Assembly: GCA_051294905.1 (NCBI GenBank) | Contig: CM119371.1 | Span: forward strand, 10,790,001-10,854,000 | Source: Botryllus schlosseri | Lineage: Eukaryota | Length of the DNA: 64,000 nucleotides | Reading direction: 5' to 3' | In this document: in pieces, positions 30,563 to 54,581 of the stretch | How the letters are laid out: the number at the start of each line of letters is the position of its first letter | How positions within the stretch are numbered: position 1 is the stretch's first letter | The notes under the pieces: generated by a model | Databases searched by the model: none | Seen by the model: only the letters and a program-made list of their open reading frames with translations | Told to the model about the DNA's origin: nothing | Position numbers and translations under genes: made by a program

Positions 30563-33500
30563 TTTGGCCGACGATGGGAAATAGAACAATCGATCTTTTG
30601 AATTCGAGAGCGATCAGTTTTTGTACATCAAAGGTGCCGCCTCGCTATAGTGAAAAAACGGTTGGGATCTCTTCTCCCTTTCACTATCTTCGCCTAGTTC
30701 GGCATTAAATATACACAATTTTGTTGACTGGGTATTGTTTCAGGTGACCGCTTCTTCGCGCCCCCCCCCCCCAGGTTGAGAACCCCTGCTGTAGACTATG
30801 GCCACGAGCCACATTATCATGAACGACCGGAAACTGTCTGCGAGCCGCAAAAAATTACGTCGCGGGGTGGATGTGTTCCTGCCCTAGATAGTCCCGACTA
30901 CAGACTATCAGACTAATTATATAAAATAAGACTGGAAACTCGACTTCGATATTGCGCTGCGTAGCGTGAAAGTTGGTAAAATATACCTTTTGTTTTAGCG
31001 TCAGATTCAATCAATCCGGAATCAACAACGATAACAATAGAGACGCAGACATCGCAGAAAAACGCGAAGGCTCCATATCGCATATTTTTATTTGGGATGC
31101 TATCTTTGATTATCCTCGTAATAGCTAGCATAGCTTTACTATGTGCGATTCTGCTGAACCAAATGGTAAGTTGAGAGTACTGCGAGAGATTGCTGAACTA
31201 TAAATTGGATTTATCAATCTTAGAAGCATCGAAATGAAGCAAGACTAAGTGAGTCTTGCCTCGAACTTGAACGCCACGGAGTACAGGAATCTGGACTATA
31301 TAAGCTGAATTTGTTGAAGAATGGGCAGTCGTCAGAAGTGAGTACCGTAATCCGCCGTTGTATGTAATGTGTAACTGTCTTTAGGAAATGAATTCCGATT
31401 GCGAATAAATGGATCAATGAGATGGCTAATACACACATAGCAGTATAGCCAGGTCAATGCAAAAGGGTAGTTGAGAAATCATAAGTAACTTGTTCAGCAA
31501 TACCTTGACCTCATGGATGCGCTGCGAAGTAGCGCGTAAGGATTATGGCAGAATATCAAAATGCGCCATATATTGCTAGTCACAACTTATTTAAATCCCC
31601 ACAACAGGGTTCCCAACCTAAGGGTCATTCCTTCGGGGTCGTGGAGACGAAAATTAAATACAAAATACTGTAATAAAATGCCAATTAACAGGATTCTATC
31701 ACAGGCTTGTTTCTGGAACATTTAGTTCATTTTAGTAAATAGAGAAAAATACGCCATTTGAGGAATGCGATCCCGACAACCAAGGTATCGGCGCAGTTGC
31801 ACCGACTTCCTAAGGGGCGTGGTTTGTATCTGGCCATCATTATGAAGGTAAAAATGTCGGCTTCGTACAAAGCAATAGGATCAGGACGGTGTTTACTGCT
31901 TCCCCCAGTTAAACTACAAGTTACCGGTAGTGCTATGTTTCAACAGTATACACGCTAGAGGCGGCCGAATAACCCGTGCATCGCTATTTGTATTTCGTTT
32001 GACGCCAAATGTCAAGCAGCATTACTTGAATACTTCGTTTGGATATAGATATAAATTGATCCAAAAGATCTATATACGTTGCTATAGTCTTGATAGACGG
32101 AGGTTTACAAGTTCATAATTGTATCATTATTAGGCTATTAATGCGCACATAGTCACCAGTATTCCGCATGGCCAGTGAGTATGTTTGGGACATGCTGCTG
32201 ACCATTTTGTAATAATCAGTACGCCAAACTAGGTGTTGGGTTGCAGAACATTTTCAAATATGTTTTAGGGTAGGAAACTCTGCCATACAGCCACGCCGTC
32301 GTACTGGTGCTGTTTCGGCAATTTATTTTTCTGCGACCAGTGGTTTGGGATACTATCATTTCGTATAGTTCAATGAATTATTTAGGTAGTTGAACCATAA
32401 CAGTTTCGTAAATATGTCGTTGTTTAGCACAAAACAAGATATATCGATCTCGTTGCCCTATCTCGTAATGAAGAGCATCTATCTTAATGGCGAAGGTCTT
32501 CTGCGATATGGAAACTGATGGAGGGGGATGGTCTCTCGTTGCAAGCATTCACGAGACCGACATCAACGCTAAATGCTCTTTCGACGATCGTTGATCTGCG
32601 TACATACCTGATATTCATCGCTTCAAAGGTGCGTTAAAGAATCATGATGACATCACATTATCGAAGCGTAGCATATGCGTAATGAGTAGTAGAGTGACTA
32701 TGTATATTATAGATTATGTATTGAGTATGCGGTGTCCTATACTGGGAGAAAGCCGATATTCCACCGTTGCCATCCAGTTACACCACACCAGAAATGCGCC
32801 TGTGAATGTGTATTCTATCAACGTACATAATCATGTTACATGTCGATATTTTGCTTCCGTTTAACATCATAACAGACGGATATTTGCCTAAAATAACCTG
32901 TTTTTGTTCCAGGTCAATTAAACTGGGAAAACGAAATGACATTCAGACAGGCATTATTCGATGATTATAAGAGTCCTGCGTACTATGAGATGCTTGTGAG
33001 CAATGTAATATTTATGCTATCCTTTATGACGAATTTCACCTCGCAGAAAACACAATTAGTAAAGAAATCATTGTATGATAATGCCTGGAACTTCCACAGT
33101 TACTCATATCGCAAAATCCCTCTACGATAATCTGTTGTATTAGAACTGAGTATATCACATGCATCTACGTTAAGTGAGCGTTGTCGTTCTTCCTAAACCC
33201 CTAATATTTCCTGCGTTCGTCTTCATTCAGATAACGATGGTGACATAATTCGCAATTACATAGGCTGCTTACGATAAAGTTGGCGAGTGTCAATATCTGG
33301 AAGTAGGCTATCATTTATCGCGCAGATGTAGGTTTCACCAAGGTTTTCACTGCGACCGAGAATAACTTCATGATCAATTGTCTCTCGGAGCTTTATTGCT
33401 GAATCTGATATGCAATTACGAAATTGTAGTGTAAACTAGGCATTGACTTTAACGCGCGTGAATTCGTGTATCATTCGTTGGATGATACCGCATCAAACCC

Positions 33501-34189
33501 GCCCGATTTTCCGTTCATTTTAGACCATACTATAACTCTGTATTTGTCTTCCACAGTCCACGGATGTAATGATCTGGCATTCCCCATCCTACGTATCTTT
33601 GCCTGTCGCGATGAGCCATTCGCATTTACGCTATAGAACAACCAACAACTTTCTTCGAAATTATGGAGGCAACTTGAAAACTTTATTCTCGAAGCATCTC
33701 CCATTGACTAACGTATCAAGTAAGACGACGTTTATTTTAGTTTATGCTCACACTCTTTACAATTCCATTATCGTCGACGAGGCTGCTACTTAAGGTATAC
33801 ACTAAATCGTTGAATATAGTTGCACTCGTGCTATATGCCAAATATAATGGATTATAGTACTTCGATATGGTACATAAATCGTTAACAGTTTCCAGATGAC
33901 CAACTTGAATATTTGTATCTCAAGTCATGCCTGGAACTATATGCCTACTCAAAATATCACGAGGTGATAGTGTACGCCGAAAATCATATAAGGCAGTGCT
34001 TTTCAACCTTCACATTCGCACCTGCCAGCCGGAATTTTGTTTCATAAAAAATAAAATGAGGAAACTTATTACTTTTGTATTCGAAGAGCTTCTTGAAGGT
34101 ACAGAGCTCCATTATTTTACGTTCATAATATTGTATTATTGATTAATCAAGTACTAAAATCACAGAGGTAGAAAATACACAGATATCGC

Positions 34190-36401
34190 TAGGGTTGCAT
34201 TAAAAACAAACATGCTTGAAACAAGGCCCTTGTTTAAAACATTTTTTTGTTTTTTTGAAGCCATGACGTCACGAATGTTCAATTGCGACGGCATCTCGGA
34301 TTGACATTTACAATTGAAAATATAGGGTAAATAGAGCTTCTTAGGCGAAATACCTGTACTATTGCTGTTGAATCGACTATTTTGAGCAGGCTTTGGCAAA
34401 GTGCGGCCCGTGCGCCAAATGCGGCCCGCTGAGCTATCCTGTGAGACCCGCGAAAGGATGCTTGGAATTGAAAATATGAAACCTATCTTGTTAATGCTGT
34501 TGCGTCGACTAAAACCATAGGATGTATAAAATGAACCGGAAATTCGTTTACTATCAAGCCTGTTCATTAACACGCCGCGATTACGCAGACCATACGTAGC
34601 CTATACCTCACATGCCTAATCCAGATGCAAGTAAATTGAATGTAGCAAATTATGCCGTTACAATTCAAGTCACAAGAAGTCACTAAACCTACTTTATTGC
34701 CATTGTCACATTACGCATTGCACGGTATGTGTTTTAAATTGTTACGTGATGCGTTTCCAAATCCCTAATTCGTAAAACAAGTCAATCAGTGCCCGAAATT
34801 TCAATGAGTATATCACCACCCAAAATGGATGCCAAAAAAAGAAACCCGAAAGTTTAAATTCAAAGAAGATTCGGAGGGCTAAATATTTGTTTTTACCCCT
34901 CATATCAGTAGTTAGTGACCAGCACATCGCCGTGTTTAAGGAGTATAATTTAAGTCGGTTCTATGACAAAACACTAAGACCGCTCGATCAAGGGATGGTA
35001 AATTTCGGAATAACTGCAAGCTTGGCTAAACAACAAGGCCATTTCTGCAAGCTGCACACTTCTCGGAAACCAGCTACCAAGCTACCAGCTTTATAGTATT
35101 CCCAGGACCGTAACTTTCGCACCTCAAACCCCTTAATAAGGGCCGACATCGACGGGCGCCCAAAATTGTTTCGTGATTGAACATAAATTAAGGAGTATTT
35201 CATTCAAAAACTTATGCAAATTCTTTCAAATTTAGAGAGCAATGGCTTATAGAACTGGGTATTTCGGCGTCCGCCATTACCACGCCCCGACGCACCTATG
35301 CACATGAAGTTTAGGCTAACACGGGATTACGAGAATGCGCTACAATTGTAACTGCTGATCAAATTAACTAAGTAAAGGTAAAAAAGCTCAACGGCGAGAA
35401 AACCTTGGACGAAAAGGACTGTAGTTATGTGACTGAAAACCACGATGTCCAACCGTCTATGGGCAATGTTTGCCAGTGAAGAAATACCAATTGGGAATCG
35501 TGCGCGTCTTTTAGTTTGGTTCGCTTTGGCGATTTCAATATCTTTTCACATAGCAAACGGGGGGTCACGAAATACTAACTTGTAACGAAGTAATTATACC
35601 AGTGGGTCCTCGGTAATATCTGCAAGATAGCGCCTCACTCAGCTCTAGCGGTGAGACTGAATACATGGGCTGGGAAAGGATAAAAATATAGCAATATGTA
35701 TGCAATTACCAATATTATTGAACGATTGAATAAATCATGAATAAATTTCGCGCTTCGCGCGACTAGCGCTTACAGCGATGCCATATTAGTGTATAAATGA
35801 AATCTTGCTCAGAAGTAGTGTTAAAAACGTGCACCCTGACGGGGCCTGGTCTGTCAGTTTGTTAGACTGCGTCGGCCATCCCGAATATTTGTTAATCTAT
35901 TATTAGAAAAACGCGAATAGAGGTTTGAAGATAGTTCCAAATGCATCATAATAAACATTGTTTAAAAATATGACGGCAGATAAATATCTTTTTGATAATT
36001 AACCGTCACTTTTTTATCTCCCAATATCAACACATCCACTGAGCACCATTTAGTGTAATTCACTGCTTTAAATGTTAAAATAAAATCAATACGCTGGAGA
36101 ATACAGCTAAAATTTCTGACTCGGCCCGCTAACATATTTTGTGCTTCTCATTTAACCCGCAGAGAAAAATATTCGCCCACCCCTGATTTTGAGGGCTGTA
36201 ACCATCCCATATCAATATACGTCGGCTATATTGGGTGGTAATTGTCCTTAGGGTCATACAACATGTTTTTTGGAAAGTATGTACGCAATTATTCCAGAAT
36301 TTTACAACTTGAAAAAAAAGAAATTTTTAAAGGCCTTTGTTGAAAACACTGTTTAAAACATGTTTTTAACAAAAACATTGTTTGTTTCTAATGTAACCCT
36401 A
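34190..36401. mobile_element. hAT-like MITE hosting 34387-36185
   Basis: TAGGGTTGCATTAAAAACAAACA / TGTTTGTTTCTAATGTAACCCTA ends; degenerate TSD (gatatcgc / gatattat). Confidence 0.65.
34387..36185. mobile_element. Charlie/Buster-like hAT non-autonomous element
   Basis: CAGGCTTTGGCAAAGTGCGGCCCG start, GCCCACCCCTG end; perfect TSD attttgag. Confidence 0.8.
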
Positions 36402-37449
36402 GATATTATCACACTGCCGTTGTTCTTAAGGTGTTCGTTGCCTTTTTCGGGGTTATTTCCTTCGAATCTCAAAGGGCGAACCCATGAACAATATTGACTA
36501 GCAACAATAACACTTATCCACGAAATCGGCATGGTACGTTATCGTGGTGTGAATTTATTCACATTTAGAACGCAGAAAAGAGTAAAACTGCGCTTGAATC
36601 GTAGCATCAATTTTGCGAATAGCACCTTTGGTTAATTTTCTTTCAACATTTGACAAGATGCTTCAACGTACTAAGCTGTATGTTAACTGACTGGATGGTA
36701 CGGTGGGCGTTAAAAACATAAATACAGTGCTATGCAAACCCATACAATCCGAATTATTGATGACGGTTACTTGAGAATAGGCTTAGGCTTCATTCACCTC
36801 TTATCTATGCAGTAAACAAATCTACATATCTTTTACGAAGAGCGCACATACATCAGATTCATGATTAACAGACAGATATATCGGCCAGGGTTGCCAACGG
36901 CGGAATGGCTCTTAGGGCAATCGTACAATATTGACAAACTGACTGAAATATTGCCAAATTATCTTTAATGTCCCAAATATCCCTATACATAAAGAGAAAT
37001 AACTACGGATGGTGTGAACCTCTGAAGGGTTCAGGCTCGTGTGAACGCGAACCTTTGTGAAAGGTGCTGGGTAAACGCAAACACATATTGCTAATTCCAA
37101 CCCTACATTTCAGTGACGTGATAGCCTATATCAGTGGTCGGGTGGCTAGCGAGCCATATGGCTCTTTTGGGTATAAGATATGGCTCTTTAATTTTGTACT
37201 CAATTTTATCGATATTCCAGCAACTTGTTAGTAAATTTTCATAACGACCATAATAATTATTCTGGCAGCATAAACAATAAATATGTCCTTCAGAGGTCAA
37301 GAGAATCACGTAACCATGGTTAAGGCCTCGGCTCCATTTATAAAATCCTCAAATTTAAGTTGCAGTAGCGCCAGAGACCAAGTCTTTCGCGAGTTACACG
37401 AACCCGTTATCGCGAGCCGCGTAATCTGGGATTGCACTATACGTTAAAT

Positions 37450-38729
37450 CAATGGTTCCCAACGTGGGCGATATCGCCCCCCAGGGGGCGATTTGGCGGT
37501 CCAGGGGGGCGAAAATAGCGAAGGGGGCGATAGGGGGGCGAAAACGGACGAAGGGGGCGATAGGGGGCGATGGCGCGTTGAAACCGCTATATTGGAGTCT
37601 AGGACCGCAATTACCGCACCCCAAACCCCCAATTGGGATGGGAGGCCCGAGCTCGAAGGGTCCCAAAATTTGTTCATGAATTAACATGAATTAGAGTAAT
37701 ATTTGGGAAATTTATGCAACTTTTTAAAAATATTTTCGCGCTGCGCGCGATTTAGCGATGTCACATTTCTTGCTTATTGGATAACCGTCACCCAAGAAAT
37801 AATACGCATGAGATATAGAAAAAGGCATCGCTCAGCCATTACCACGCCATGACGCAGCAAGGCATATGAAATTTCAGGCCATGTAACATGCGACTTCGAG
37901 AAGTGTGCCAGAACGAGAAAACCTTGGCGGAAAAGCACTGTCTTTATGCTGACCGACTTCGATATATGTACCATATATGATACACATATATGTGTAATTG
38001 TCCATAGGCCCCTAAATCGCTGGCGCCAAATGTTCCTGTCCTGGCAATCAGAATCCCACAAGACAAATGCCATCCCGCAGAGAAAAATCAATTGTGAGTG
38101 CAGAAATAACAATTCTAAATCGTGTTCGTCTTTTAGTTCAGTACGTATGGGCGATTTGAATATCTTTTGACATAGCAGACATGCCACGAAATGCCATCAC
38201 CTAACGAAGTCTTTATACCCACGGGTCCGCCAGAATATTTTTAATTAATAATTACGGATCCTACATTTTCCAAGACACCTCACTCAGCTCTACCGGTAAA
38301 TCTGAATACATGAGCAGAGAGAGGATAAAAAATTGACAGCAATATATATGCAATTCCCCAACATATTGACCGATCCAATCATGGATGATGGAAATTTTTC
38401 GCGTTTCACGCGAATTAAGCCGACTAACTAACTAAAGAGTCCAATAGTTTTTGCTGAGAAGTAGCGGTAAAGAGGTATCGCGGGCAAAGCCCCCCCCCCC
38501 ATACGTTTGGTTTATCACCATATCGGGGCCCAAAGACACACGTTTTGGGGGCTGACGAAGTGCTGTTACGGTCCTTTTGGAGTCAAGTCGGAGAAATGAC
38601 CTTTTTTAGGTCAAATCGTCGGCGATTACAGTTTGTATGCCTATTTTTCGGTTCCCAATATTTGGGGGGCGATGATCGGTGCGGAGCTTGAAAAGGGGGC
38701 GATGAGTCGAAAAAGGTTGGGAACCACTG
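37450..38729. mobile_element. Composite hAT MITE (CAGTGGTTCCCAAC family)
   Basis: Perfect TSD cgttaaat; inner element 37600-38576 with TSD ttggagtc. Confidence 0.9.
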
Positions 38730-40481
38730 CGTTAAATGATAGAAGAGAATTGCAGATATTGGGATTCCTACCTAACAATCAAGTTTACAAATACACATTG
38801 TCTTCCTGATCCACAACGAGAATTAAACTGCCTTTGAAGTGACATTAACAATTAAAAATCCGAATTACAAACAATACTTAGCTATCCTCGTTCTTGATTC
38901 GTAAGTAGCTTTCTTGTACTGCCGTTAAAATAAAGGCTGGTGTGTTGTGCAACGTTCATGTTACCGCTTAATAATTTGAGAATTCAGAAGTCGATCATTT
39001 TTTTTGATGAACCCAGTCATATCATATTTATTTCAGAAAGAATTGCAATACATACAAATGTAAAAGTAAAATAGAATATGTAATATTAAAAACAAAATCT
39101 CACTCACACTTTCTCAGCATACAAACGCATGAAAGGGAACAGACGCAATAAATATTCAATTCACTCTCACATTCATACTCAAACTCCCACTCGTGTATCG
39201 CAATTTTCCTTCATTCTGGTCCGACATCCTCGCTCTTGGTTCCGTCATCATTACCATCATTCCCCGCCAGTTTGGTCTCCTTTGTTTTGATCCTCGTCGT
39301 CATCGCTGTTGTTTCATCGCTCTTCTCGTCATGTTTCTTTTACCAAACGCATTTTGTCATTGTGTTGGTTCGTTTTCATCCCCGATAAAGGCTAGTTCAT
39401 ATCGGACTGGTTGTTCCTCAAGTGTATTTCTAAAGAATTTTTTCCTTTTAACTTATCCTTTCAATGTTTTTGTCGTCATTTGTTTGATTTTCTCGAACGA
39501 GTTGGTTATGACTTTGTTGGCTTTGTCCAGCGTAAATTTCTGTTTCATTATTCCTTTCTCGATTATACTAAGAACCGTCTAATCTTCAGATCCCTCTAAA
39601 CCTTTGTTATAAAAGATGTGGTCTTTTCGGAGATAATTAGTTCTCAGTTGTCTTCTGAAATTATTATATAGCTTTCTTGTGAATTGGCATTTAGTAAGAT
39701 GTGATCTAAATTATCTTCTTTCTGCTGACAGAATTTGCAGTTCGTATTCATTCTTCCTTGTGTCCCTATGTTGAATAAATTTAGTCTTCTTTTGTCATCT
39801 CCTAGGAATTATCCTTTCAGAGCCACTGTTATATTTATGATTCTTTCTTGATTTGTGATCTCGTTATTGCAAGCTTTATCCACGGTAATTTTTTCGCAAT
39901 CTTTCGGGTTTGCTGTGGGCAAAGTCTTACTTGCTGTTGACTCTTTCTTCTTCTTAATTTCTTTATATATATATATCTATGGGTGGCTTTCGCCCATGAT
40001 TCATCTGTCCAGTTCATTTTATTCGCCACCTCTATTATATTTTCCCATTCTTGTGTGATGGTTTCTTTATGTGGCGAAGAGTTATTATATAATTTTCGGT
40101 TTATTTTGAGTATTTTTGATTCTAGTTGGTAAATTGCCTCATGATGCCAAAGTTCAGTTGGCTCTTCCATTGTTTTTAGGATCTTGAATTTTTCCATTTT
40201 ACACGCTTCGAATTTACTTTTGATGCACGGTATCTTCAATTTTCCCATGATTTCAGAAGATATCGGATGTGATCTTTTTATCGCTTCCATTTGTTCCGGA
40301 TACCAGATAAATTTGAAAAACATGTTGTTCATTCTATCTATTTTTTTCTTCGGAGCTTCTCTTATTCTAGCATTGTATATTATTTTTGTTGCTGCCAAAC
40401 TTTGGAGTAATATTTCTTCTCCAAACCATGTTAGTTTTCTTTCCTTGTGCATGTGGATGAGTCTATTGATTTGTTCTATTT

Positions 40482-41715
40482 CAGGGGTTCTCAGCCCTTT
40501 CTTGGCCGTGGCCCATTTTCCTGTTTGAAAATGTGCTGTGGCCCACCTGATATCTTAGAGTCATAATCTTGTTTAATGCTTGGTCACGGACAGCGCCGAT
40601 ATGCCTATTTCTCTAAAATATGCGCGTTTTTCTCTAATGGATGATATTTAAATCTCGATCTCCCGGGATAAGAAATCGCGCCAGGCGCGAAAATTTTTTC
40701 ACATTGAATAAATATCCTCCAATAAACGACCAACGACATAATCTTGGGCCCCTTCGAGTTCCCCAATTGGGGGTGTGGGTGCGGTAGTTACGGCCCTGGT
40801 AGATCATAAGCTAAAACTCATAAGTAGACTATTTTCGTCCGCTGCTCCATTCGCGTAGCGAAACACAATGCTCAGATTCCCGCACTGTGTGATTGGGACT
40901 TTAGTGATACTATTGAAGGAATATTACAATCATTCTGTGCCGGCATCGAACAATTCATTGGTGGATGGGGTACTACAGAGAAGTGAAGAAATATTTTTCA
41001 ATATGCATGATGTACTTTGTATGTCTTGTACCAAAACAACTGAAGTTGCGATGTCAGAATATTCAATCCAATGATACAATCCATTCCTGTGACTCTTTCA
41101 TTATGTACAATGATTTCCAGGCCGGACATTTTAAACAGACTTCAACGATTATTGCGCTCCTATAAATCCTCAATCCATTAAGATTCGTTGAGGTGGTGCA
41201 GTATACCTCCGCCAGAAGTTGCTAATAATTTGCAATTATGGCTATTTTAGCTTAAAATAATACGGCCTGCCGAAGTACAGTAAATCTGTTCATCAATTTC
41301 ACTTCATTGCGAGTTCATTGCATACCCCTATCAACGGCATACGTCATATGACGCTGCCGGAATACTTGGTTACTTCAGCATTATCTTCCAGTTATTATAC
41401 GCTTGAAATTATATTAGTTGCTGTTAGCCATAGGTTGTCATAGCCAGTAGAAAAAGCAACCGTTTCTCCCTAACGTTTTCGATATGTACACGCTGACTTC
41501 ATACGTGCCACTACGTCTAATCAGGGTCGGATAAAAAGCTTTGTAGCTATGTGCCCTACGTATAATTAGATAATACGAATATATTTTTAGCGAATAACAT
41601 ATGAAATATAACTAAACCTACATTAATTCTGAAATTTTCTAAATAGCTCTGTGGTCCACCTCAAAATGTTATGTGGCCAACCAGTGGGCCATGACCCACC
41701 ATTTGAGAACGCCTG
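40482..41715. mobile_element. hAT MITE inserted in the LINE
   Basis: CAGGGGTTCTCA / TGAGAACGCCTG ends; flanks ttctattt / tcctattc. Confidence 0.7.
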
Positions 41716-41806
41716 TCCTATTCCTTTGTCCCAAGTCAAATTTATGTAGTTTTTTCCGAAGTGTTGGCCTAATGTTTTGGTTGTTGGTGTAATATTTCCT
41801 CTATAT

Positions 41807-42597
41807 CAGTGGTTCCCAACCTTTTTCGACTCATCGCCCCCTTTTCAAGCTTCACACCAATCATCGCCCCCCAAATATTGGGAACCGAAAAATAGGCATA
41901 CAAACTGTAATCACCGGCGAGTTGACTAAAGAAGGTCAACTTTTCGACCTCGAAATGTACTTTTACAGCTAAATTTTCGCGAGTTGACTAAAACAAAACT
42001 GTCATTTTTCTGGTTAGACTCCAATATAGCCGTTTTAACGCGCCATCGCCCCCTATTAGTGCGGAGCATGGACCGGAGCTGGATTTGATATCCGGCCGGA
42101 TTTTTTCAATTCTGGCCGGACCGGATTGGAGCCGGATCCGTACTTTTTCTGATACGGCCGGAGCTGGATCGTAGCCGGATCAATACTTTTTTAATAAGGC
42201 CAGAATCTTTATGGATAAGCATGACGTTTGTAACTAAATAACTACCAACGAACAACACGCCAAGTCAGTGCAAAAAGAAACGAGCCATAGTTTTGAATTC
42301 ACGGAACCACCGTACCGTGTTGGGTCGGATTTCCGGCAGGATATTTTCAGTTTTGGCCGGATCGGAGCCGGTTCAGTACTTTTTCCTGATATGGCCGGAG
42401 CCTGACCAGAGAATTGGCAAACCGGATCGTAGCCGGACCAGAGAATTTGTCGATCCGCTCCGCACTACCCCCTATAGCCACCTTCGTCCGTTTTCGCCCC
42501 CCCCCCATATCGCCCCTTCGTTATCTTTTCCCCCCTAGACTGCCAAATCGCCCCCTGGGTGGGGGTGGGGCGATATCGCCCACGTTGGGAACCACTG
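41807..42597. mobile_element. hAT MITE (CAGTGGTTCCCAAC family, reverse orientation) inserted in the LINE
   Basis: Perfect TIR CAGTGGTTCCCAAC; perfect TSD ctctatat. Confidence 0.92.
42057..42467. mobile_element. hAT-like MITE with CCGGA repeats, nested in 41807-42597
   Basis: TIRs TAGTGCGGAGC / GCTCCGCACTA; perfect TSD ccccctat. Confidence 0.9.
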
Positions 42598-44653
42598 CTC
42601 TATATTCTTCTTCATGGATTATGCCTGGTTTAGTTATGAGAATTTCTGTTTTGATTTATTTAGAATTTGTCCTGTAGCTCCGCGGAAGCAATCTAATTCT
42701 TCGAAGACTATTTGTAGTGATTTCTCGTCTTTTACTACCGCAGTAAGGTCGTCTGCATACTGCCGTAGTCTTAATTCATTTTCCCCTTTTTTAATCCATT
42801 TATATTATTATTTTTCATTATCTTTCTCGCTAAAGGGCCTGTCGTCATTGCGTACAGACACATACTAAGGGGACATCCTTGTCGGAGCCCCTGGTTATCT
42901 GTATGTTCGTAGTTAAGGTACCATTTATCTGGACCGGATGTAAGAATTTCCTTACAGATTTTCTACTAATCTTCTTATGGCCACTGGTATGCCGTAGGAT
43001 TCTAAAATTTTGGAGAGATAGCCGTGATGTACCCTATCGAAAGCCTTATCTTTATCAAATGATACTACTATTACGTCCGTTTTCCTGTAGTAGTTTAATA
43101 TCAGTTATTATGTATTCTGAGCTGTACGATGAATTACGCTATCACAGGATAAGTAGTTGTCTATGAGTTTTGACAGAGAAAATATGGCGCCAACGACGAA
43201 TTCCATGTAGTGGGTTCGATTTAGTACTGGCATGACGCCATGAATTTTCAATTGTGAGGTGCAATGGATTTACATTAATGGTTGTTTGGGAGTTAAAATG
43301 GAAAATGTAGGGCCAACATGGCTATTCAGACGATAAAGGTTCCCGACCACTGGCCTATTTTAATGTACGTGATACCTAGAGACGACTCGGGACACATACC
43401 TCCACAATGCTGAAGTACATATTGACGTTTTAAACGTCGCCAAATGCATCAACTGGGGCAATCAAATGATATATTGTTGTCCCATAAAATCAATATATTC
43501 CGTCGCTTTGCCAACCATTTCGACGAGGGCTTGCAAGGGAATATAAGCTTACGCCTTCACGGTATGGGCGAGATCGGACAATATATTCGGCGTCTGAGTA
43601 TTGCTACGTTGATATTGAGCAGAGTGTAAGACGGGTTTCTATACTTGCTACCGATATTACCCCAATAACAAGTTATACAGCCGTAACCAACACCCCAGTC
43701 GCACGTAATTGGTTTTTATGATATAATAAACATATGAAGTCAAGATTGTCCCTGTACGCCTGCTAGATTTTTTACATCAGACAACTACATCAATTTCATC
43801 GATTGGTTGAATAAGCATTATTCGCTGACTACATGTAGTGTATTTAGCTCTTGATGTTGTGTGATTGCGTGTCAAGCTCACGGCAGAGAGTCACTAAATA
43901 GTGAATATACACAAATGGAAAGCTGGATATTTCGAGCAAACTTTTGTAACAAAGCAAATAAAATATTTGAGATTGTCAAGGTGCATGCTCGTTTGGTGTT
44001 GCTTTTTCATGCGGCCAGCGGCATGCATAGAGTGGCCCGCAGTTGGAATGCAAGAAATTTCATACAAAGATGCTATAATGAAGTGAAATTGTAATATATG
44101 AAAAAGTTTCACAGTGCGGAACCTACCAAGGTTCGTTTGTGAACGTGAACCTCGAAATTTCCGAGGTTCACACACAGAACGCGAACGTGAACCTCACGCT
44201 CACACCATCCCTAGTGATAAGTTTCAACAGTCTGATGAAGCTTGATTTAGGCTGCAGAAAGAATATCGTAAGATATGAGTGTTGGTGGATATGATTTGCT
44301 CTACAGAGGGTGTTCAAGTTAAATCCGTAGAGTTCGCAATATGACAAAATTTGAAGTACAAACAATTCGGTACGAATACGAATAAGGCAAATTTATCCAA
44401 TGAATCAGCAAGCTTAGTTGCATCGTCAGATAATTATATGTAGGCCTATGCCTTAACGATCTAGACTAGGCCTGAGATCATCAGTCCAAGAACAGGAAAC
44501 GTGTCGAAGCACAAATGGTGTAGTTCGCATTACAAATAGGCTTTTGCAAGGGTCATTAGATAACATTCCAGCGACACACTTACAAGTGAATTCTGATAAG
44601 TAAGCATCTGATAAGTGCCCAGCATAACCCGCTGATTAAGCCGATCCCTAGAG

Positions 44654-46199
44654 CAGTGCTTTTCAACCTGTGTGACGGTTCGCACTTGTGCGAATGAAAA
44701 AAATTTGCAGTGCGAATGACGAAGGTGGCGCGAACAGTGCGTATGAAAATCCGGATCAAGTGCGAATGGAAATCGTGAATAATTGTTAAATTTTCTGACT
44801 TGGAATAATTCAAATAAACCTAATCGGAAATTTAAGGTCAGTTTAACTTTTGCAGTGGCGACGCAATTGTAAAAACTTGTTTACTTACGACGCACCGCTA
44901 TTCGTAGCTCTCACAAGCCGTAGTGAATGACTTCAAATTGATTTTCTGTTTTCTTTCGCTAAACAATCATCATATTTTCGTAATAACTGTTCGATTAGCG
45001 CGAGGCACGAGAATAGTAGTACATACCATCATTACAGACTCACATTTGCAAGTTACTGTAACGCAAATTTTTACCCCTTCGCAGGTAAAATATGGCTTTA
45101 TCGTGAGAATTCTTGATAAGATTTGTCCGACTTGTTTTTCTGGGATGAGTTCATTTCGAGCCAACCCCTTCTGGCTAGGGGCACATGAAGACGTACATTT
45201 TGGCCAACAAACCGCTGACAAAATGTGGTGCCAAAAACATAAGCGGCGACAAAACCTTGGTCTAAAAATGACCGATTCTGGATGGCCAAACTTCTCGATA
45301 TAGATATGCTCCGTTGTCGGCACGGACCATTCCCGTTCTTGCAATCGGAGTAAACAAGTAGTAAAACTGCGACACGCAGAGGAATTTAATTTGCCCTTAT
45401 TTGAAATCACGTGCGTCAGACATGTTTTGTTGAGCTGTGGTGGGTAGAATTGTGGTGTGCGCGTTCTGTATGTCATACATGTTCTCAAAATCGTAGCTTA
45501 CAACTGTAATATTCAAAATGATTTTTTTTTCATGGGTGAGGCTCGGGTCGCTTTACCGTTATTAAACTGTTCTGAGTTCTCAATTTAGATTGAGCTAAAG
45601 AGCAGAACACACAGCATCGTGAGCATATTTGCTCGTCTCATATAATCGCGAGACAGAAGTTAGAGTTCGCTACCATATGATCCGCTACTCCAATGTGCCC
45701 ACTCTCCTTGATCGTTTTTGCACCTTATATTCCAACACATAAGGCAAAAGCCTCAAAACAAACATGTGGTATTTTCACCTTTTCGACAAACTGGAGCCTC
45801 CGCGGGACCTTTGTGTCAGCTCTCAAATACCATTTCCGCCAGCAGGCATTTTTCACTCGCGAAAAATACGCTGTGTGTTGGATAGGAGTACAGAACAGAT
45901 TTTAAGACCTGGCCATCCAAGCACTAGTAGACGTTCTTGTAGTGTACAAAACCCAAAAACTTGTTTGGCCGAGAAGGGTTTTAGTGAAATAATTGAAATC
46001 AAAACGAGCAAAAAAAGTTGCCTTTTTAATGGGACACTTGATAGCTTAAGTTACATAGCAGCTAATTTGTTGCACATCCGAACAAAATGTTGTTAAGTAT
46101 CTTCATCTTTTTGTATAACAATTTTCGATTAGTTTGTGCGAATCAAATTTATTTTACAAATAACGTGCGAATGGAGTTCAAAAAGGTTGAAAAGCACTG
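44654..46199. mobile_element. hAT non-autonomous element with GTGCGAA subterminal repeats
   Basis: TIRs CAGTGCTTTTCAACCT / AGGTTGAAAAGCACTG; perfect TSD ccctagag. Confidence 0.92.
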
Positions 46200-46240
46200 C
46201 CCTAGAGCATTCAAAACGTCACCTATACTACAGCTTCTGC

Positions 46241-46371
46241 CCAATAAGATCACCATCAATAAGATCATCGATAATAATCCATCAATAAGATCCATAAGAT
46301 TCAATAAGACCACCATCAATAATCCATCAATAAGATCCAATAAGACCACCATCAGTAAGATCATAAGATAT
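46241..46371. repeat. Degenerate minisatellite (CCATCAATAAGAT-like units)
   Basis: Repeated aataagatc / ccatcaat units visible directly. Confidence 0.75.
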
Positions 46372-49300
46372 ACTGTCATCGGTAAGCTTTATATTGGTAT
46401 TCGCTAATGATGTATACCTTCTGAAATGGGGAATTCGTCCACCACTTGCATAAGCGCCTTTGCTTTCCCTTGATGAAAACACGGCATGTAGGCTACAGCC
46501 ATTTCCTTCACAATAAATCAGTCATGCTGTAAAAGTTTTTGTGCAGCAGCTGTTGTTTGTTCATCATGTATTTCGTACCTCAACATGTCATGAATTAATC
46601 TTGAATCCTCATCTGCCAACCTACCAATAATGCGCTTTCAGAATCCCAGCCGGTAGCAGACTCCTTGAACACCTAATCAGGAAGCTGCTGGTGTCGTGAT
46701 CATTGAAGCATATACGATTAGCCAATAAAGAGCCGTGGTTATGTGACTACGTAGTCTTATCGTCGTTCTATGATCGGCGGCACGTCCATTCTTGGGCGGC
46801 TACTTTCAAACGCTTTGATTGAAATCTTAACGGTTTCATCTGAGCTTGTTTCAGCCTCATTTTTTTTATATCAATAATCTATAGAATGAGACACGATCAT
46901 GGAGCATGAGAATCTTAATTTTGACAACCCTAATGGACAATTATCATTCGCACTCATTCGGATTTTTCATTCGCACCGTTCGCACCGCGCTTGTCATACG
47001 CACAAGTGCGAACCGTCACACAGGTTTAAAAGCACAGGTATAGGGTATATATTTCTCTATCACAGGCTATTCAACGATATTCATCGCCTCTACTAACGCA
47101 CTGCTCCCGTTTCAAAAAAACTTCGATTACTAAATACTATTTCTTCGACATTGTTTTAGTAACTTGGAGTCCACTTGATAGTTTAAGCTTGATGCGATAC
47201 GTATACGTATGAATTATATGACTCACACCATTTAACGGTGTAATTTTCATTCTTTTTCCCAAGATAATAAAAATCGAATGACAAATATTTCAACACCCAT
47301 TTAATTACACCTTACAGATTCGAACATCACCAGAAAATTCCTGAAACCGCTGATTGAATCATTCTCCGAAATCAAGCAATCGATTTCTGGATGGTATGAA
47401 TATAAAAATCTGCTGAAATTCGGAAAATCATCAATCGCAGATACAAATATGGTGGTCGAAATGACAAATAAGGTAGTAAAAAGTCATTTTAGGTTCCTAC
47501 CGCAATGCGATTATCTGTGATGGTTACCTCGTCAAGACGTGTACGAGATGTTGTATTTCCTCGTTGATTTATTTGGTTTTCAAATCGGGTATTGATGAAT
47601 ATGAGAGATGTCATTTAAAAAGTACGACACCGTAATGCAAAATGATTTCTCAGAGCGTTAAATTAATTGGACGATCCAATAATATTTTCGATAAAAGTGA
47701 GACAATGACTTATCATTGTATTGTATTTAGCATGATATTGTCATCACCATTTCAAACTTCTATTTGATGATTAACTACGTTCGCAATAAGTAACGCGAAT
47801 AACGTGTGAACCGTAATAGCAAAAATGTCCCCCAAAACGGCAATTTGCTGTTCCACCAAACTATTAATGTTATCAGTTCTAATTTGGTGCCATTTTGGGG
47901 AGTTTTCGATCGAAAACATAAATTCAGCAAAATATTGACGCAGAAATCAATATTTTCTTTAGGATGCGCGTGATGCTTAGAAAACGGCTTCGGGCTCCCC
48001 AAAAGACAAAACTTCAAGAGGAGATGGATTTCTAGGAAGTACCGTGTCTATAGTTAACCCCAATATTGATTTGTTAGTTCATGGGTGGCCATCTGGCCAA
48101 TATGCGGCGGTAGGTCCAAAATTATGCGGCCATCGACCAATGTTCTCTGTAAGTTGCGCGCGTGCACAATTGCGCAGTTCTGACACTGTTTATGACAACA
48201 AAAAATCCGAAGTGATGACCTTATTTTAGTCGTTATGCACTGTTGTCCAAGGGACTGCGCAGTGAATTGTTGAGTGCGCGCAGACTCGTGAAAAATAGGT
48301 AGTAAGATCGTCTTCTATAAATACCCTTCATCCGATTTTACTCCACCATGCGAAGCCTTGGAACCCTGATTGGCCATGTCTCAGCATACGAGTCATAGTG
48401 CAAAGCTACGAACGTTGCAGGAAATAACACATTTCCGAAGTCATGATCATCCCACAAGATTGTCAACAAGTGCAATAAAATCGGTATGGTCGAAAAAATG
48501 CCGAAGTATCTCTAATGTGACGGATAACACGCATTATGTTCTGATTGGTGGCATAAAAGGTATATATTTGAACTTTGACAGAGAACATTCTGCTGTTCCG
48601 TCATAATGAGTGATACTGAATGCTCGACTCGTTATTTAAAAGTTCAGCTGGACTCAATTGGTTCGTGGCCGATGAGAGTCGTTCAAATAGTACTATTCAC
48701 TGTTACATAAGGTTACCATATTTTAAGATCCCAAAAGAGAACACTTTTCAAAGATTCTGAAAGCTCTAGTAACAAAAATGAAAACTGGTGATTTCAAAAA
48801 AAAATTCAACCAATAGTACTGTGTTGACTAAAAAATGGCCATCACTTTGACTCGACTCCCATCTTACCCGCTTTTAACGATAAGTATGTGATGTTCACAT
48901 AAAAGGGGTCATATTTCCCAGCTCTACTCCTCCTGGAATACCCCTCGCGCCGTGTTTTTCGTTGATTGTCATGCCAACTCCGGTGTTCGCTACGAGTTGA
49001 GTTTTGAATGGCATTTTATTACTTTTCTTGAGGAAGAGGGCAAATTCTCAGAAAAAATGACATTTATGCGTCCTCCGAGTACACTTTGAATTGATTGAAG
49101 ACAAAAGAGGACAAGTCCTCAAGAGAACGTATGATAGCCCTACAGTTACAGCCGTGAAGACGCGAAAAGTTGTATGTCATCATATGAAAACTGTACTACA
49201 ATTCAACGCAAGTTGGTGGGAATGACATCCCGTGAAGCCATGATCGACCCATACATCACTGTCAGAAAGTGCAAGAAATAGGTATTGTCGAAAAACTACC

Positions 49301-52217
49301 AAATTACCTTCAAAGTGATGAAGAACCGCCGCAAAATGTTGGTTGCAAAATGTTGAAATATTTAAACTTTCAACAAGCACTCTGCATATTATTGTAACGT
49401 CATAATCACTGATACTAGATTACCGGACTTAAAGTGTAATACTTGATTCACTATCGATTCACTGTTTTTGCTCCATCCTTCTTACATAGGATGAGATATA
49501 ATTATTCGATACATTGTGAAATCATGATTCTGCTAATTCAGGAATACAAGTCCAAGTATCTTGATGCAGTATTATATGATTCTGCGTAGAAATAGTATTA
49601 AAACATTCGGACTGGAAACGAACTCAACTTGATGTAGGGAAAGCCTCTGTATGTCGAAGTTTGATAGTATCTTCAAGGGACTATGAATGTGAATATAAGT
49701 CAAAGCATAAATTTGATCATAAACCATGTGAAACTGTGGTGTCGGAGCGATCCGTGTGTACTGCATGATTGCTGAGCTGTCCGCTCACGTTCTTTTTCTG
49801 CTTTTATATGACAGCACTTGCTAAGTATATATTCCCACCACGCAGGTGTATATAAAAGGTGGGAATCCTGGTGGAATTAAGCAGTATGTGCCATATGGAA
49901 TGGAATTCAGGTAAGGAACGGGATTGCTTCGTAGCTTAGATTGTTAAATGTGAAATGATGGGTGTTGTTTGGTCTCTATACAATCCCTAAGTTTTTATCT
50001 AAAGGCATCGTATTTTTTTTATCTGTGCCCAAGGTCGAAAACCATCAACATACAAAGCGCCATTTGAACCTGCTCCCAGTCACATAATACCAATCATCTG
50101 TTCCGTCCCTAAATAAAAATCATTACACCGTTTTAATTGACTCCTAACCAAGTACATAATAATGTAATCTTGGAGTAGAGGAGTGATCCTCAACATGTCG
50201 TAGCGATATATTGCCAGTGAAAACCTTGGAAACTTCAGAAAAATGGCAAAACAACTTTCAAACTTACACGATCACAGTTTATGGAAAATAAATACATGAA
50301 ATATTATTTAGTAAAAATTATCCATGAAATATACATTTATTTTGCCTACGAAGTACCGCAACGGATTCATGAAAGAGTGCATACGGCTCGCGTGTCACGA
50401 AATGCTCACCCCATAACTATGCTCGTGCTTTGCACGTGAATTCATATCCATATATACATATTCTAAACAATTAGAGAATTCTCTCGTCCTAATTCAAACA
50501 ACCAAATTCTTTGGGATATAGCCTACCTCATACCCTATATTGACGATCTCACGGAATTATGATGTGATTAGGCGTTCAAGAGAATTCTCATCATTCGTCT
50601 TCATAATGGAAGTCGGCAGCATCCAAAAGTTACATAGTTTCTCATGATTGAGTTGGTACTATGCGATTGAAATTATTATTATTAAAGATTATGATAGCGA
50701 AGTCCGTACACGTGGTGGATACTGGCCCAAGGTGTCGTGATATTCAGACCATACGCTTCTACTGATAAGTCGCTGTCAGCGACTAAGACCTATATCGTTA
50801 TGCATGATTAATCCGTACTGTTACGTTTATTCTATGTACTGTTTATTTTTCAGAAGTGAAGATTTAGATGAAATTTCTTTTAGCGCTCTGACCACGCCAT
50901 TCACCTTTCTTATGGCTATAAGAAACGACGGGGGAAAATCAAAAATTCACGAGATCGCAGTTAGATTCGCGGATACTCCTTGTATATTTAGAATTATTTC
51001 ATGTTATTATAGGGGATTGGTGGACGCTGTAAGCTGTTGAAAACGACCAGATTCCACAACAATGTGACGAATGGAAACTTCATCATGCAGTATCATGCCA
51101 TCCAGTTCACGCCATTGGGTACAACGCGAAATACCGAATGTCGTATTCACTTTTATATTTCAAGCGACAAGGTAACTCAGATTAATTACAAATGCTGTTA
51201 CAGTAGGCTATAATCATGAGAATGTCAACGACATTTTAATATTTCTCTATATATTCTCCAGGACTGGAGATCAATACCACTATCTCAGTTTATCAAATCC
51301 CAGGATTCTGACTGCTACGCAAGTTATCGTATTGAGGGTCGGCAATCTCGGATTTTGTTTGGTTACACTTTGCTTACTAGGTAGGCTCAAGGTGTTTTTA
51401 CGGTAACAGCAGTAATGCATGAATCGATGAACGTCTATACTAGTTACCAAATGTAACTTCCATGGATGGACAAAAACGAAGCATATCTGATTAGTTACGA
51501 ATAATAAAAATCTTGCTCGAATAGCGATTTCTAACAATGCACTGCGCTCTAAATATGATTAGGTCTCGAATTAAAGATACTATTTGGAAAATTATAATAA
51601 TAGCAGTCATTTTTTCTAGAAAGCCACCGTAGGCCTATTCGAACTTCAGCTGAGAGAAAATGCACTATAGCAGACTATACGTTCTCTGTAGTGTCGAGGT
51701 TACTGGTAATTATCATCGTTATCGACTTCTGGCACGTATTGTATCTCTGTTGCAGTCTCTGGACGTGACCTCCTTCTTATAGTCCCCTTTCACTAGCTAT
51801 AGACTAACTTGGAAATCATATGAGGCGTCACTCACACTATGCCCTCTAAATTACTGCGTCTAAGGACGTTGACAATATTTAAACGCGACCAATTGATTCC
51901 CCTAATTTTGGGTTGGTCGGGCAACAATGACAGATTTTCTCATTTAAATAGAAATGGAGGGCAGGCCTACAATCAATCGGAAATTGATGATATCACCGCA
52001 CAGATACTGCAACGAGTCTCCGTTTTCCTGAATCTTATGGACGGTAAGACTCGGTCAAATATTAGCAGTATGAAGTTCAATGAAAACTGAAAGACGAATG
52101 GCAACGGCTGAATAAAAGCTATATGAGCCTAATATGAAAGCATATGGTTTTATATTGGTCTAAAACAGTTAAGCAGTAACAAGTCGACACCATTAGTGTA
52201 AACAGGTCATAGAGTTA

Positions 52218-52680
52218 AAGGTTGCAATCAAGTGACAAGACTCCGAGTCACAAGTCAATCTCACTTTTATAGTTTTGATACGAGTCAACTCGAGTCATTT
52301 TCAATTCACCGCCCAGTCAAGTCTGAGTCCGAGTCAGTAATCTGAGAGTCGAGTCCGAGTCATGGTATTATGACTCGAGTCCGAGTCCAAGTCATTGTGT
52401 TGATTGCTCAGTTTTCAGTTGAAGTCTAGTTAATCCCGCATTTTATAACTCTGTGTGGTGACATCGAATGGTTCGCATTTAGAATATACTCATTTCCCCA
52501 CCTTTAGCAGTGTCTGGTCGCATTTTCAGCACCAATAGACGACATCTCAATAGTGTGGTTATTTTACTATTCTTTGAAATTGCAATGGAATTTCGGTCTT
52601 TGCCGTCTGAGTCTTGAGTCATAATACTTGGTTCGAGTCATGCGCAATGACTCGAGTCCAAGTCGAGAATCGATTCACAA
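52218..52680. repeat. Decayed GACTCGAGTC-repeat MITE
   Basis: Clusters of gagtcgagtccgagtc; similar array at ~7460-7632 ending TGCAACCCTG. Confidence 0.55.
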
Positions 52681-54581
52681 TCGAGTAGTAGAATTATTGG
52701 GCGCAGCATAACAGGCGACTCTAATTTGAGTTTCGTCGCTAGGCCAGTGTGCATAAGGCTTAAGTCAAATATTAACAATATACTAATCCAACCCATGCAT
52801 CGAAAGTACGATGCACGGAAAATAAGCTATCGCCAAACTTGTTTTTCAGAATGGCAGGACATGGCAACAGTTATGGTGCCAGTTACATTTGACGAGGGAT
52901 CAGAAGTGAATCTTCTAAAGCGGATACCTTCCTACATGAGCCGATTCATTGTTCCGGGAAATTTGCAGTTTCGAGCCTACAACTACGGAGGATATCCAAA
53001 CGCACTATGTCCAGGAATCAGGTACGTGGCAATACTCGCAATATGCTAATGCAGGGCTGTGTCATAATTAGGGTGAACGTGAATTGTCTTTATTGCCGGA
53101 CCTTTAGTCGATTAGAAATATCAACAGTGTCAGCTACAGATTTTTCGAATAATTCAATTGGAAGGATTTGTATTTGATTTCAAAAACAATGAAATATTTT
53201 CAACTGCCATTGTCAGCGCTTATGATAACAGTATCGTATTTGTACCGTTGTTTCTTGGTCAATTCCTAATGTCATTATTGTCATATTATTTCCACAAAAT
53301 CGTTTCGATAAATGGCATAGTCGAATGAAGTCTTCATAATTTTTTTGTTATGTGCCATTCCCATCTGTCCTGTTCAACAAAGACGAAATTGCATTGGATT
53401 AGCACTTTCAACCTAGAATAATTCATCTTCAGTCTTCTCACAACGGCGAGACCGGAAGACGTGTGCATTGGGGGAATATCAAACGATATTACGACTCGTG
53501 GATCATGCGGTGACTTTGCTGGTAAGCAATCAATAGAATCTGGCGTACGGATCGTAGTATTTAGTGACTGACCTGCATTTGGTATAACGAAAACCACCAA
53601 GTAGCCTATTTGATTGCCGAAGACACGTAATGTATAGATGAGTAACTTCATCATCGTAATCTACTACGCCAATTACGGCCTTTCTTCTAGACTCCTTTCG
53701 TGGTCACATAATATTAATTAATATGTAGATAATTATATTGGGTTCTTTATTAATGAATTTTGGTAGGCGTCTCGAGTAGTAGTTAGCTATCATATATTTC
53801 TTTGTTATAACATGTTCATGCTACAACACAGAAGAAGTAATAAAGTTACTCTCGCAATGTTGTCTCACGATTTAAACCGCCTTCAATTTAATATTATATT
53901 TCGTAAATCAGGTTGGGATGAAGCATATGGAAACAGTTCGGTATCATCTGATATGTCGTCTACCATACTCATATTCTACCGATGAGACCGGACTGAAAAA
54001 GACTATCAAATTCTTGCAAATGGAGATGAATATGCATTTAATATGGAGATATTTATACACGACATATTGTATGGCTGGATTTGCAACTGGCGTTAGCAGT
54101 ATACTATCACTGTCACACCAATGACAACGAATCAATTTCAATAATGATTTTTGTTGGTGGTGTTTACAAGGTCGTTCGATTATTGACAATTTCATACAGG
54201 ATTAAGTGGTTATCAACACGATTTAACTCCAATTCGTGGTTAATGACCTGTGTATGGTCCGAGTTTCATATTTACGATCAAACTACTCGTTTGGATTGCT
54301 AGCATTCTGGTTGCATTTTGTGATATGACGATATGGGACGGTGGTCGCGAAGTTTTTCACTATCATCAAGGGGGTCGAGTCTATAAAAGTTTTGAGAACC
54401 ACTGAATGCAAAGATAATATGAGTAGGAGAAGGTATCGACGATATGTGTAAAGACTCCTTTTGTCCAAATTTGACCAACCTTTTTTGGAATCAGTATACA
54501 GTCTGACCGATGCTGTGTTTTAACAGACGGCGCCCGAGTATAACTTGACATCACACAGGAATAGAAATTATATTATATAAT

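Follow-up and report, generated by a model that had tools for sequence, protein, structure and literature searches.

Work on chordate intelectins has treated them as lectins that consist of a single domain and are specific for microbes. The canonical proteins of known structure—human ITLN1 (4WMQ, 4WMY and 6USC), Xenopus XEEL (4WMO) and the serum lectin 7E1E—begin with a fibrinogen-like segment and, further on, carry nine residues (4wmq_A 184–192) between two stretches of lectin sequence. In this paper, we describe a gene of Botryllus schlosseri that shares the fibrinogen-like start, and whose exons on either side of this point, termed ‘X’ and ‘Y’, align in order to these proteins, but that has 232 residues where they have nine. 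The gene lies on the forward (+) strand of a 64-kb stretch of contig 1, ‘the window’ (C1:10790001–10854000), from whose first letter positions are counted. Paralogs were searched for in the 495-Mb assembly.

We think it likely that this gene is most of a tunicate-type, two-module intelectin, in which a block of six exons, flanked on both sides by phase-1 introns, specifies an autonomous domain (the ‘module’) of ~230 residues at the point of the nine-residue linker. The product would be a secreted lectin with a second sandwich, and in this copy the module would act as a spacer or have drifted in its role.

The lectin and the point of insertion

The exons found extend from 31224 to 53571. Those of the lectin, with the first of the introns that separate the two modules, are as follows; paralog A is an 85–92% identical copy of the region, situated 2 Mb away.

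31224–31337, + strand: intelectin exon I1 (...SCLELERHGVQESGLYKL...GQSSE), located by tblastn with the Styela protein P0022; AG/GT borders taken from the sequence.
32496–32589, + strand: intelectin exon I2, VFCDMETDGGGWSLVASIHE... (VFCDMETDGGGW...), with a fibrinogen-like signature.
32913–32995, + strand: intelectin exon I3, QLNWENEMTFRQALFDDYKSPAYYEML, conserved in paralog A; borders taken from the sequence.
33557–33719, + strand: intelectin exon X, STDVMIWH...FSKHLPLTNVS, ending in phase 1 (one base carried over) at donor GTAAGA.
33720–47317, + strand: intron between X and the first module exon, 13.6 kb and swollen by repeats (~2.2 kb in paralog A, from collinear blastn).
52850–53021, + strand: intelectin exon Y, WQDMATVMVPVTFDEG...LCPGI, with a phase-1 acceptor after ttttcag; 18 matches in the genome.
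53433–53571, + strand: last intelectin exon, LLTTARPEDVCIGG...VVFSD, stop TGA; conserved in paralogs.

Exon I2 is covered by a Pfam Fibrinogen_C match (expectation value, E, 1.1e-4 on 32472–32594) and was found by tblastn with five ascidian proteins, to whose homologous segments it is 56–66% identical; the fibrinogen-related N-terminal segment, with its CDM..GGGW.LVAS.HE signature, is thus present. In phmmer comparisons with the solved intelectins, exon X matches XEEL at E 2.7e-5 and ITLN1 at E 0.007. The match of exon Y to ITLN1 is weak (E 0.058), and spans 55 of 56 residues in the right order. Residues 3–47 of exon X align to 139–183 of 4wmq_A, and residue 1 of exon Y to 193. LPLTNVS and the junction codon, eight residues in all, occupy the place of the nine residues of ITLN1, so that the lectin is complete and the 232 residues are a pure addition. 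The lectin domain of this gene is therefore not contiguous: exactly where the short linker (184–192) would lie, it is interrupted by the 232 residues.

The two ends of the gene are less familiar. The last exon has no phmmer match among the solved intelectins. Calcium- and carbohydrate-binding residues of human ITLN1 are 243, 244, 260, 262, 263, 274, 288 and 297 (PMC8324875), and those that bind carbohydrate (243–297) would mostly fall in this exon, which has no detectable sequence match. Upstream of I1, no 5' exons with a signal peptide were found in the portion of the window read, and neither strand of the window has a run of five or more G-X-Y triplets that might represent a collagen-like exon. 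Exon I3 of the window lacks, in frame, three codons (GDV in paralog A) where other intelectins have FG(D/S)A.

The six module exons

Between X and Y lie six exons with AG...GT borders throughout and fitting phases, which together make 696 nucleotides (nt), or 232 amino acids (aa), free of stops.

47318–47472, + strand: module exon E1, phase 1 to 0; N-terminal helix region and degenerate motif SSIADTNMVVEMTNK; 96.8% identical to paralog A.
49846–49910, + strand: module exon E2, VYIKGGNPGGIKQYVPYGMEF, phase 0 to 2; aligns to ascidian proteins.
50854–50959, + strand: module exon E3, phase 2 to 0; followed by a 53-nt intron (50960–51012).
51013–51171, + strand: module exon E4, GIGGRCK...HFYISSDK, phase 0 to 0; tblastn against paralog B, E 7e-10.
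51262–51380, + strand: module exon E5, DWRS...LFGYTLLT, phase 0 to 2; 19 genome matches with the paralog B homologue as query.
51952–52043, + strand: module exon E6, NGGQAYNQSEIDDITAQIL...NLMD, phase 2 to 1; donor GTAAGA.

The E1 donor at 47473 is common to the paralogs, and gives the 696-nt total. Introns as short as 47–65 nt are the norm in this family; a 60-nt example in paralog B happens to be open, so that the frame continues through it for 130 aa and the intron is masked. The E5–E6 intron is ~570 nt here, compared with 47–65 nt in paralogs B, P1 and P2, because it contains a short dispersed repeat (51539–51631). At least 35 of 40 scored genome matches to 50780–52140 cover only this repeat, at 69–95% identity and on many contigs.

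Conservation among paralogs

The module travels with the lectin. At 13 of the 18 genome matches to exon Y, module-exon matches lie upstream on the same strand within 11 kb, and at one further locus they lie 32 and 52 kb upstream. The other four have no module matches among those listed; three of these have an exon-X match 11–18 kb upstream, which leaves room for a module. Among 13 paralog stretches read, the full order X–module–Y was seen in five (the window, A, B, P2 and P8). Most of the remainder comprise module exons and Y, while P7 (E3/E4 only) and P12 have module exons alone.

Comparison of the window with paralog A separates exons from introns clearly. The eight exons compared have 16 splice dinucleotides, every one of them unchanged between the two copies, and no insertion or deletion occurs in 1031 exon bases, compared with five such events in 640 bases of flanking intron; at the intron rate, ~8 would be expected in the exons (Poisson estimate). 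The ratio of nonsynonymous to synonymous substitution (dN/dS) is 0.46 for the module, at a synonymous divergence (dS) of 0.10, and 0.54 for three intelectin exons. Paralog B, 94–125 kb upstream, is far more distant, its intelectin exons being only 50–59% identical to those of the window. It nevertheless keeps the same two flanking intelectin exons and, between them, protein matches to E1 (E 7e-5), E4 (7e-10), E5 (3e-9) and E6 (3e-7). Conservation of the exons as protein in paralogs is seen at 36–48% identity. Between B and P1, dN/dS is 0.40 at dS 0.36, and exon lengths are identical, while three introns have 1, 12 and 249 gap positions. The E3–E4 intron occupies the same position in the window (53 nt), B (60 nt) and P1 (61 nt). 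Counterparts of E2 are present in A, P8 and P12, and paralog B has one candidate, at 21753–21832 of the joined coordinates.

The borders that tie module to lectin are conserved as well. The phase-1 donor of exon X is kept in all five paralogs read for it, and the phase-1 acceptor of exon Y in every one. E1 begins at a homologous phase-1 acceptor in seven of seven, with no conserved ATG; E6 ends at a phase-1 donor in six of six, beyond which the sequences are unrelated and share no stop. In P8, moreover, X and E1 are only ~340 nt apart, which leaves no space for another promoter and first exons.

An earlier note on this DNA had proposed that intelectin homology halts at 33719 and resumes at 52850, that six phase-compatible, stop-free exons (696 nt) bounded by phase-1 introns lie between, and that they form a symmetric phase 1-1 module where vertebrate intelectins have only a short linker. 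The alignments to 4wmq_A and the paralogs bear this out: exon coordinates and peptides are as the note gave them, phase-1 borders of X, E1, E6 and Y recur in every paralog in which they were read, and the short linker holds for the solved structures.

The same architecture in other ascidians

An E1 profile, built from two paralogs that keep the motif described below, was compared with 1.84 billion representative proteins, of which 65 matched at E≤1e-3, 10 at ≤1e-10 and one at ≤1e-30. Among them are proteins in which an intelectin N-terminal half, a module of ~230 aa and an intelectin C-terminal half follow one another in a single reading frame: XP_039250619 of Styela clava (P0022, 613 aa); H2Z0U1 of Ciona savignyi (P0053, 594 aa); CAK8695977/8 of Clavelina lepadiformis (586 and 464 aa; P0068 is CAK8695977); and P0013 (606 aa) and P0066 (639 aa), encoded on contigs of 1935 and 2128 nt, respectively. 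These two contigs are too short for introns, and so are taken to derive from cDNA. A separate search added a protein of this kind from Phallusia mammillata, P0071 (485 aa), a UniRef entry named after LOC100185757. P0066 does not come from the window species, in whose genome its best exon identities are 50–73%. The spliced product of the window is collinear with five of these proteins (P0022, P0053, P0068, P0066 and P0071), from exon X through the module to Y. Their names at source go no further than ‘uncharacterized’ or ‘Fibrinogen C-terminal domain-containing’. A collagen-like N-terminus is present in most of them (by Pfam, on P0053); in the window, no collagen-like exon was found. Word-index protein searches with the long exon of paralog B and with exon Y, both restricted to longer proteins, gave no match.

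By these sequence comparisons, the module exons are coding sequence, conserved along with their splice phases, and other ascidians have the same architecture.

The module as a domain

In an alignment of 25 module sequences, I42, G45, G46, D48, D51, G53 and N54 are invariant, and form the motif I-x-DGG-x-DMxD-x-GN. The motif is intact in paralogs P8 (contig 7) and P12 (contig 6). Pfam, NCBIfam and PHROGs contain no model for the module, and the E1 frame of P8 has no sequence match among solved structures. A match to TagA (E 0.034) was dismissed as weak.

Modules of this kind are not confined to intelectins. In tunicates, they occur as tandem repeats in Phallusia/Ciona LOC104266555 (8 and 6 stretches), and joined to Sushi, WSC or CUB domains in other proteins. 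A pattern scan of bacteria, with one genome per species, returned 288 matching stretches, of which 163 were confirmed by tblastn and 80, in 77 loci, were kept. The carriers are mostly Bacteroidota, with some Verrucomicrobiota, Planctomycetota and Chloroflexota-type bacteria, and one cyanobacterium; their modules are 24–36% identical over most of the module length. In the six frames scanned, of 12 delineated, the module resides in large surface proteins with immunoglobulin-like arrays, type IX secretion system (T9SS) sorting tails, subtilase or dockerin, and none of the best Pfam matches listed for these frames falls over it. Surface proteins of Bacteroidota and Verrucomicrobiota commonly carry the module, and it occurs in phage and virus proteins too. 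In metagenome proteins such as P0078 and P0084, it follows an N-terminal part that matches the phage ‘virion structural protein’ family phrog_10356. In bacterial, phage and other tunicate carriers, the module stands at the C terminus, internally or in tandem copies, rather than inside another fold.

Structure prediction was applied to the Styela module (residues 277–512), and gave a mean predicted local distance difference test (pLDDT) of 89.2 and a predicted template-modelling score (pTM) of 0.90. The model comprises an N-terminal helix, ~12 strands and a C-terminal helix, in a β-sandwich. Foldseek found nothing in the PDB at E≤1e-3, the best match being a family 65 glycoside hydrolase (GH65; 7fe3_A, 2.4e-3), and the best score in an ESM Atlas search, 0.89, was below the level regarded as meaningful. 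Predicted phage proteins are much closer matches to the model, with template-modelling (TM) scores of 0.76, 0.68 and 0.60 (E 1.5e-10 to 8e-8). The confidently folded model appears to be a β-sandwich that most resembles galactose-mutarotase-type domains. Members of this ‘supersandwich’ group include the N-terminal domains of GH116, GH65, GH94, GH15 and GH63 enzymes, the C-terminal domains of polysaccharide lyases, aldose 1-epimerases, and the periplasmic domain of YidC. Sequence identity between the module and these domains is only 3–12%, and the module has an additional helix at each end; the likeness is one of fold alone, and as such shows neither membership nor function.

The module of the window is collinear with this unnamed DGGxDM(Y/F)DxGN module over the whole ~230 aa, and is a degenerate example of it. 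Where the motif would stand, the window has I-A-D-T-N-M-V-V-E-M-T-N, and it has GIGGRC in place of GADGxG, and RNT in place of DPS. The ascidian two-module proteins keep all three of these signatures, whereas the window copy has lost them. Its relatives B, P1 and P2, also on contig 1, are likewise degenerate in the motif.

The earlier note’s account of the insert is supported for the most part. The I-x-DGG-x-DM(Y/F)D-x-GN motif exists, and is degenerate here. Proteins with the two-module order that it envisaged come from four ascidian species, and one is encoded on a contig the size of an mRNA. Its ‘uncharacterised invertebrate domain’ is too broad for the distribution seen: the carriers that could be named here are tunicates, bacteria and phages, not invertebrates generally.

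Proposed product and origin

If the gene is expressed as proposed, its mature product would be a secreted lectin, from a loop of which a second β-sandwich of the galactose-mutarotase-like type projects. In canonical members, the invariant cluster of acidic and glycine residues (DGGxDMxDxGN, GADGxG and DPS) is most likely a site at which metal or glycan binds, and such lectins are predicted to have two recognition surfaces. In the window copy, and in the tandem relatives that it has on contig 1, most of the cluster has given way to other residues, and the module is most likely a structural spacer, or one whose specificity has drifted, as might be expected in a fast-evolving, immune-type gene cluster.

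Exon shuffling would account for the presence of the module in an intelectin. We entertain, more tentatively, a fuller account, in which a supersandwich domain of bacterial or phage type that binds glycans was acquired by an ascidian ancestor, multiplied to give the multi-repeat proteins and those with Sushi, WSC or CUB domains, and shuffled as a phase 1-1 block into an intelectin. The module would then represent a new carbohydrate-binding family, spread across Bacteroidota surface proteins, phage virion proteins and tunicate immune lectins. This is possible, and in our judgment somewhat doubtful.

Other loci and features

Two module loci deserve separate mention. P12 (C6:28230001–28240000, within it 6256–7363) retains E1, E2, E4 and E5, in which the motif DGGNDMFD is intact, and has no intelectin exon in the 10 kb read around them; its module may belong to another kind of gene. 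At C17:2050001–2060000 (within it 6358–6733), only E3 and E4 are present, 70–76% identical to paralog B and with an internal TAA. No other module or lectin exon occurs in the 20 kb read, and this locus is probably a gene fragment.

Some 26 additional intelectin-like loci (C1:7.65–7.72 Mb, C1:19.5–19.8 Mb, C13:15.68–16.28 Mb, C4, C11, C2 and C15) match residues 133–236 of P0066 in one exon, and have an X-like segment within open frames of 131–148 aa. They would seem to be canonical intelectins, a class apart that lacks the module, and the frame lengths hint that canonical loci have no intron at the insertion point.

Within the window, the extra DNA of the X–E1 intron (34177–46368) consists of repeats. 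RNA reads map to this intron only partially and on both strands (e.g. 38269–38935 and 43605–44271), and loose read ends of TTAGGG type occur near 37453 and 37937. A 239-aa frame on the opposite strand (39835–40554, –) has no Pfam match, and none was found for four long open frames in other parts of the window.

Alternative explanations

Several results weigh against our interpretation. RNA from four runs bearing the same species label, sampled at ~6–13% and aligned to window 33600–53599, gave zero depth on every exon, intelectin and module alike. We therefore infer the splice junctions of the window copy from its sequence, and this copy may be silent in these four samples. The values of dN/dS, 0.4–0.5, signify no more than moderate constraint, and a pattern search of B, P1 and P2 located no counterpart of E2. 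The window retains only nine of the 24 module columns that are conserved in ≥90% of ten reference modules. A model of full-length Styela P0022 (pLDDT 56, pTM 0.46) is confident for the module part only, and too poor to reveal how the domains pack; a binding function for the module is something that we infer. Finally, a direct join of 33719 to 52850 is also in frame (...LPLTNVS-K-WQDM...), one residue short of the human linker, and such splicing may yield a module-free isoform.

The last of these points leads to the alternative that survives best, namely that the six exons form a cassette, left out of some or most transcripts, and that the gene yields a canonical intelectin of one domain as well, or for the most part. 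Both flanking introns are in phase 1, so the join preserves the frame, and the window module has lost its hallmark residues. Yet the module is constrained like the lectin exons (dN/dS 0.46 versus 0.54), it is retained at 13 or more loci, and the annotated and transcript-derived relatives include it; with separate canonical-looking loci in the genome, moreover, there is no need for this gene to supply a product that lacks the module. We consider this explanation unlikely on balance.

Slightly less probable still, in our estimate, is that the window copy, and perhaps its relatives on contig 1, are silent or decaying paralogs with modules that no longer work. The lack of RNA depth in the four runs is consistent with this, as are the replacement of 15 of 24 conserved module positions (including G45, G46, D48, D51 and G53), the divergence of the last exon beyond sequence recognition by solved intelectins, and the failure to find a collagen-like exon. 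Against decay, every exon that was read is open and no splice site is broken; relative to paralog A, at dS 0.10, the exons have no indels, and the flanking introns have five. The degenerate form has also been kept between B and P1, where dN/dS 0.40 at dS 0.36 points to long-term maintenance.

It is very improbable that the six exons constitute a separate gene nested in a 19-kb intron of the intelectin and copied with its host. Tandem duplication would carry such a gene along, and in the window copy no RNA reads span the junctions: the four runs contain no relevant joint, only partial reads of repeat type. Nevertheless, a nested gene fits poorly with the conserved phase-1 acceptor and donor at which E1 begins and E6 ends, with neither a common ATG nor a common stop beyond them, with the narrow gap between X and E1 in P8, and with the lectin–module–lectin reading frames of four species and the 2128-nt contig. 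That the exons are chance open frames, selected from a long intron, can be dismissed: free choice in 18 kb always yields some phase-compatible frames, and Pfam finds nothing in these, but protein conservation in paralogs (36–48% identity) and in other species, with indels confined to introns, refutes it.

Significance

A full-text literature search, within the texts it covers, found no published description of this domain-inserted intelectin architecture. By word search, none of ‘intelectin’, ‘lectin’ and ‘fibrinogen’ occurs in the main text of PMC13390645, which dealt in 2026 with tunicate genes acquired by horizontal transfer. Proteins with the two modules are nonetheless already public, as ‘uncharacterized’.

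The window copy is a degenerate member of its class, and this limits what the locus alone can teach. It does serve to put an unnamed domain on the map, one with relatives in at least 163 bacterial genome stretches and in phage proteins, and no family model. A conserved ascidian class of intelectins with a grafted, autonomous domain would, if true, be a natural domain insertion that makes a two-surface immune receptor. And if the module is indeed of bacterial or phage origin, these proteins would be chordate pattern-recognition lectins that combine two different recognition domains in one fold.

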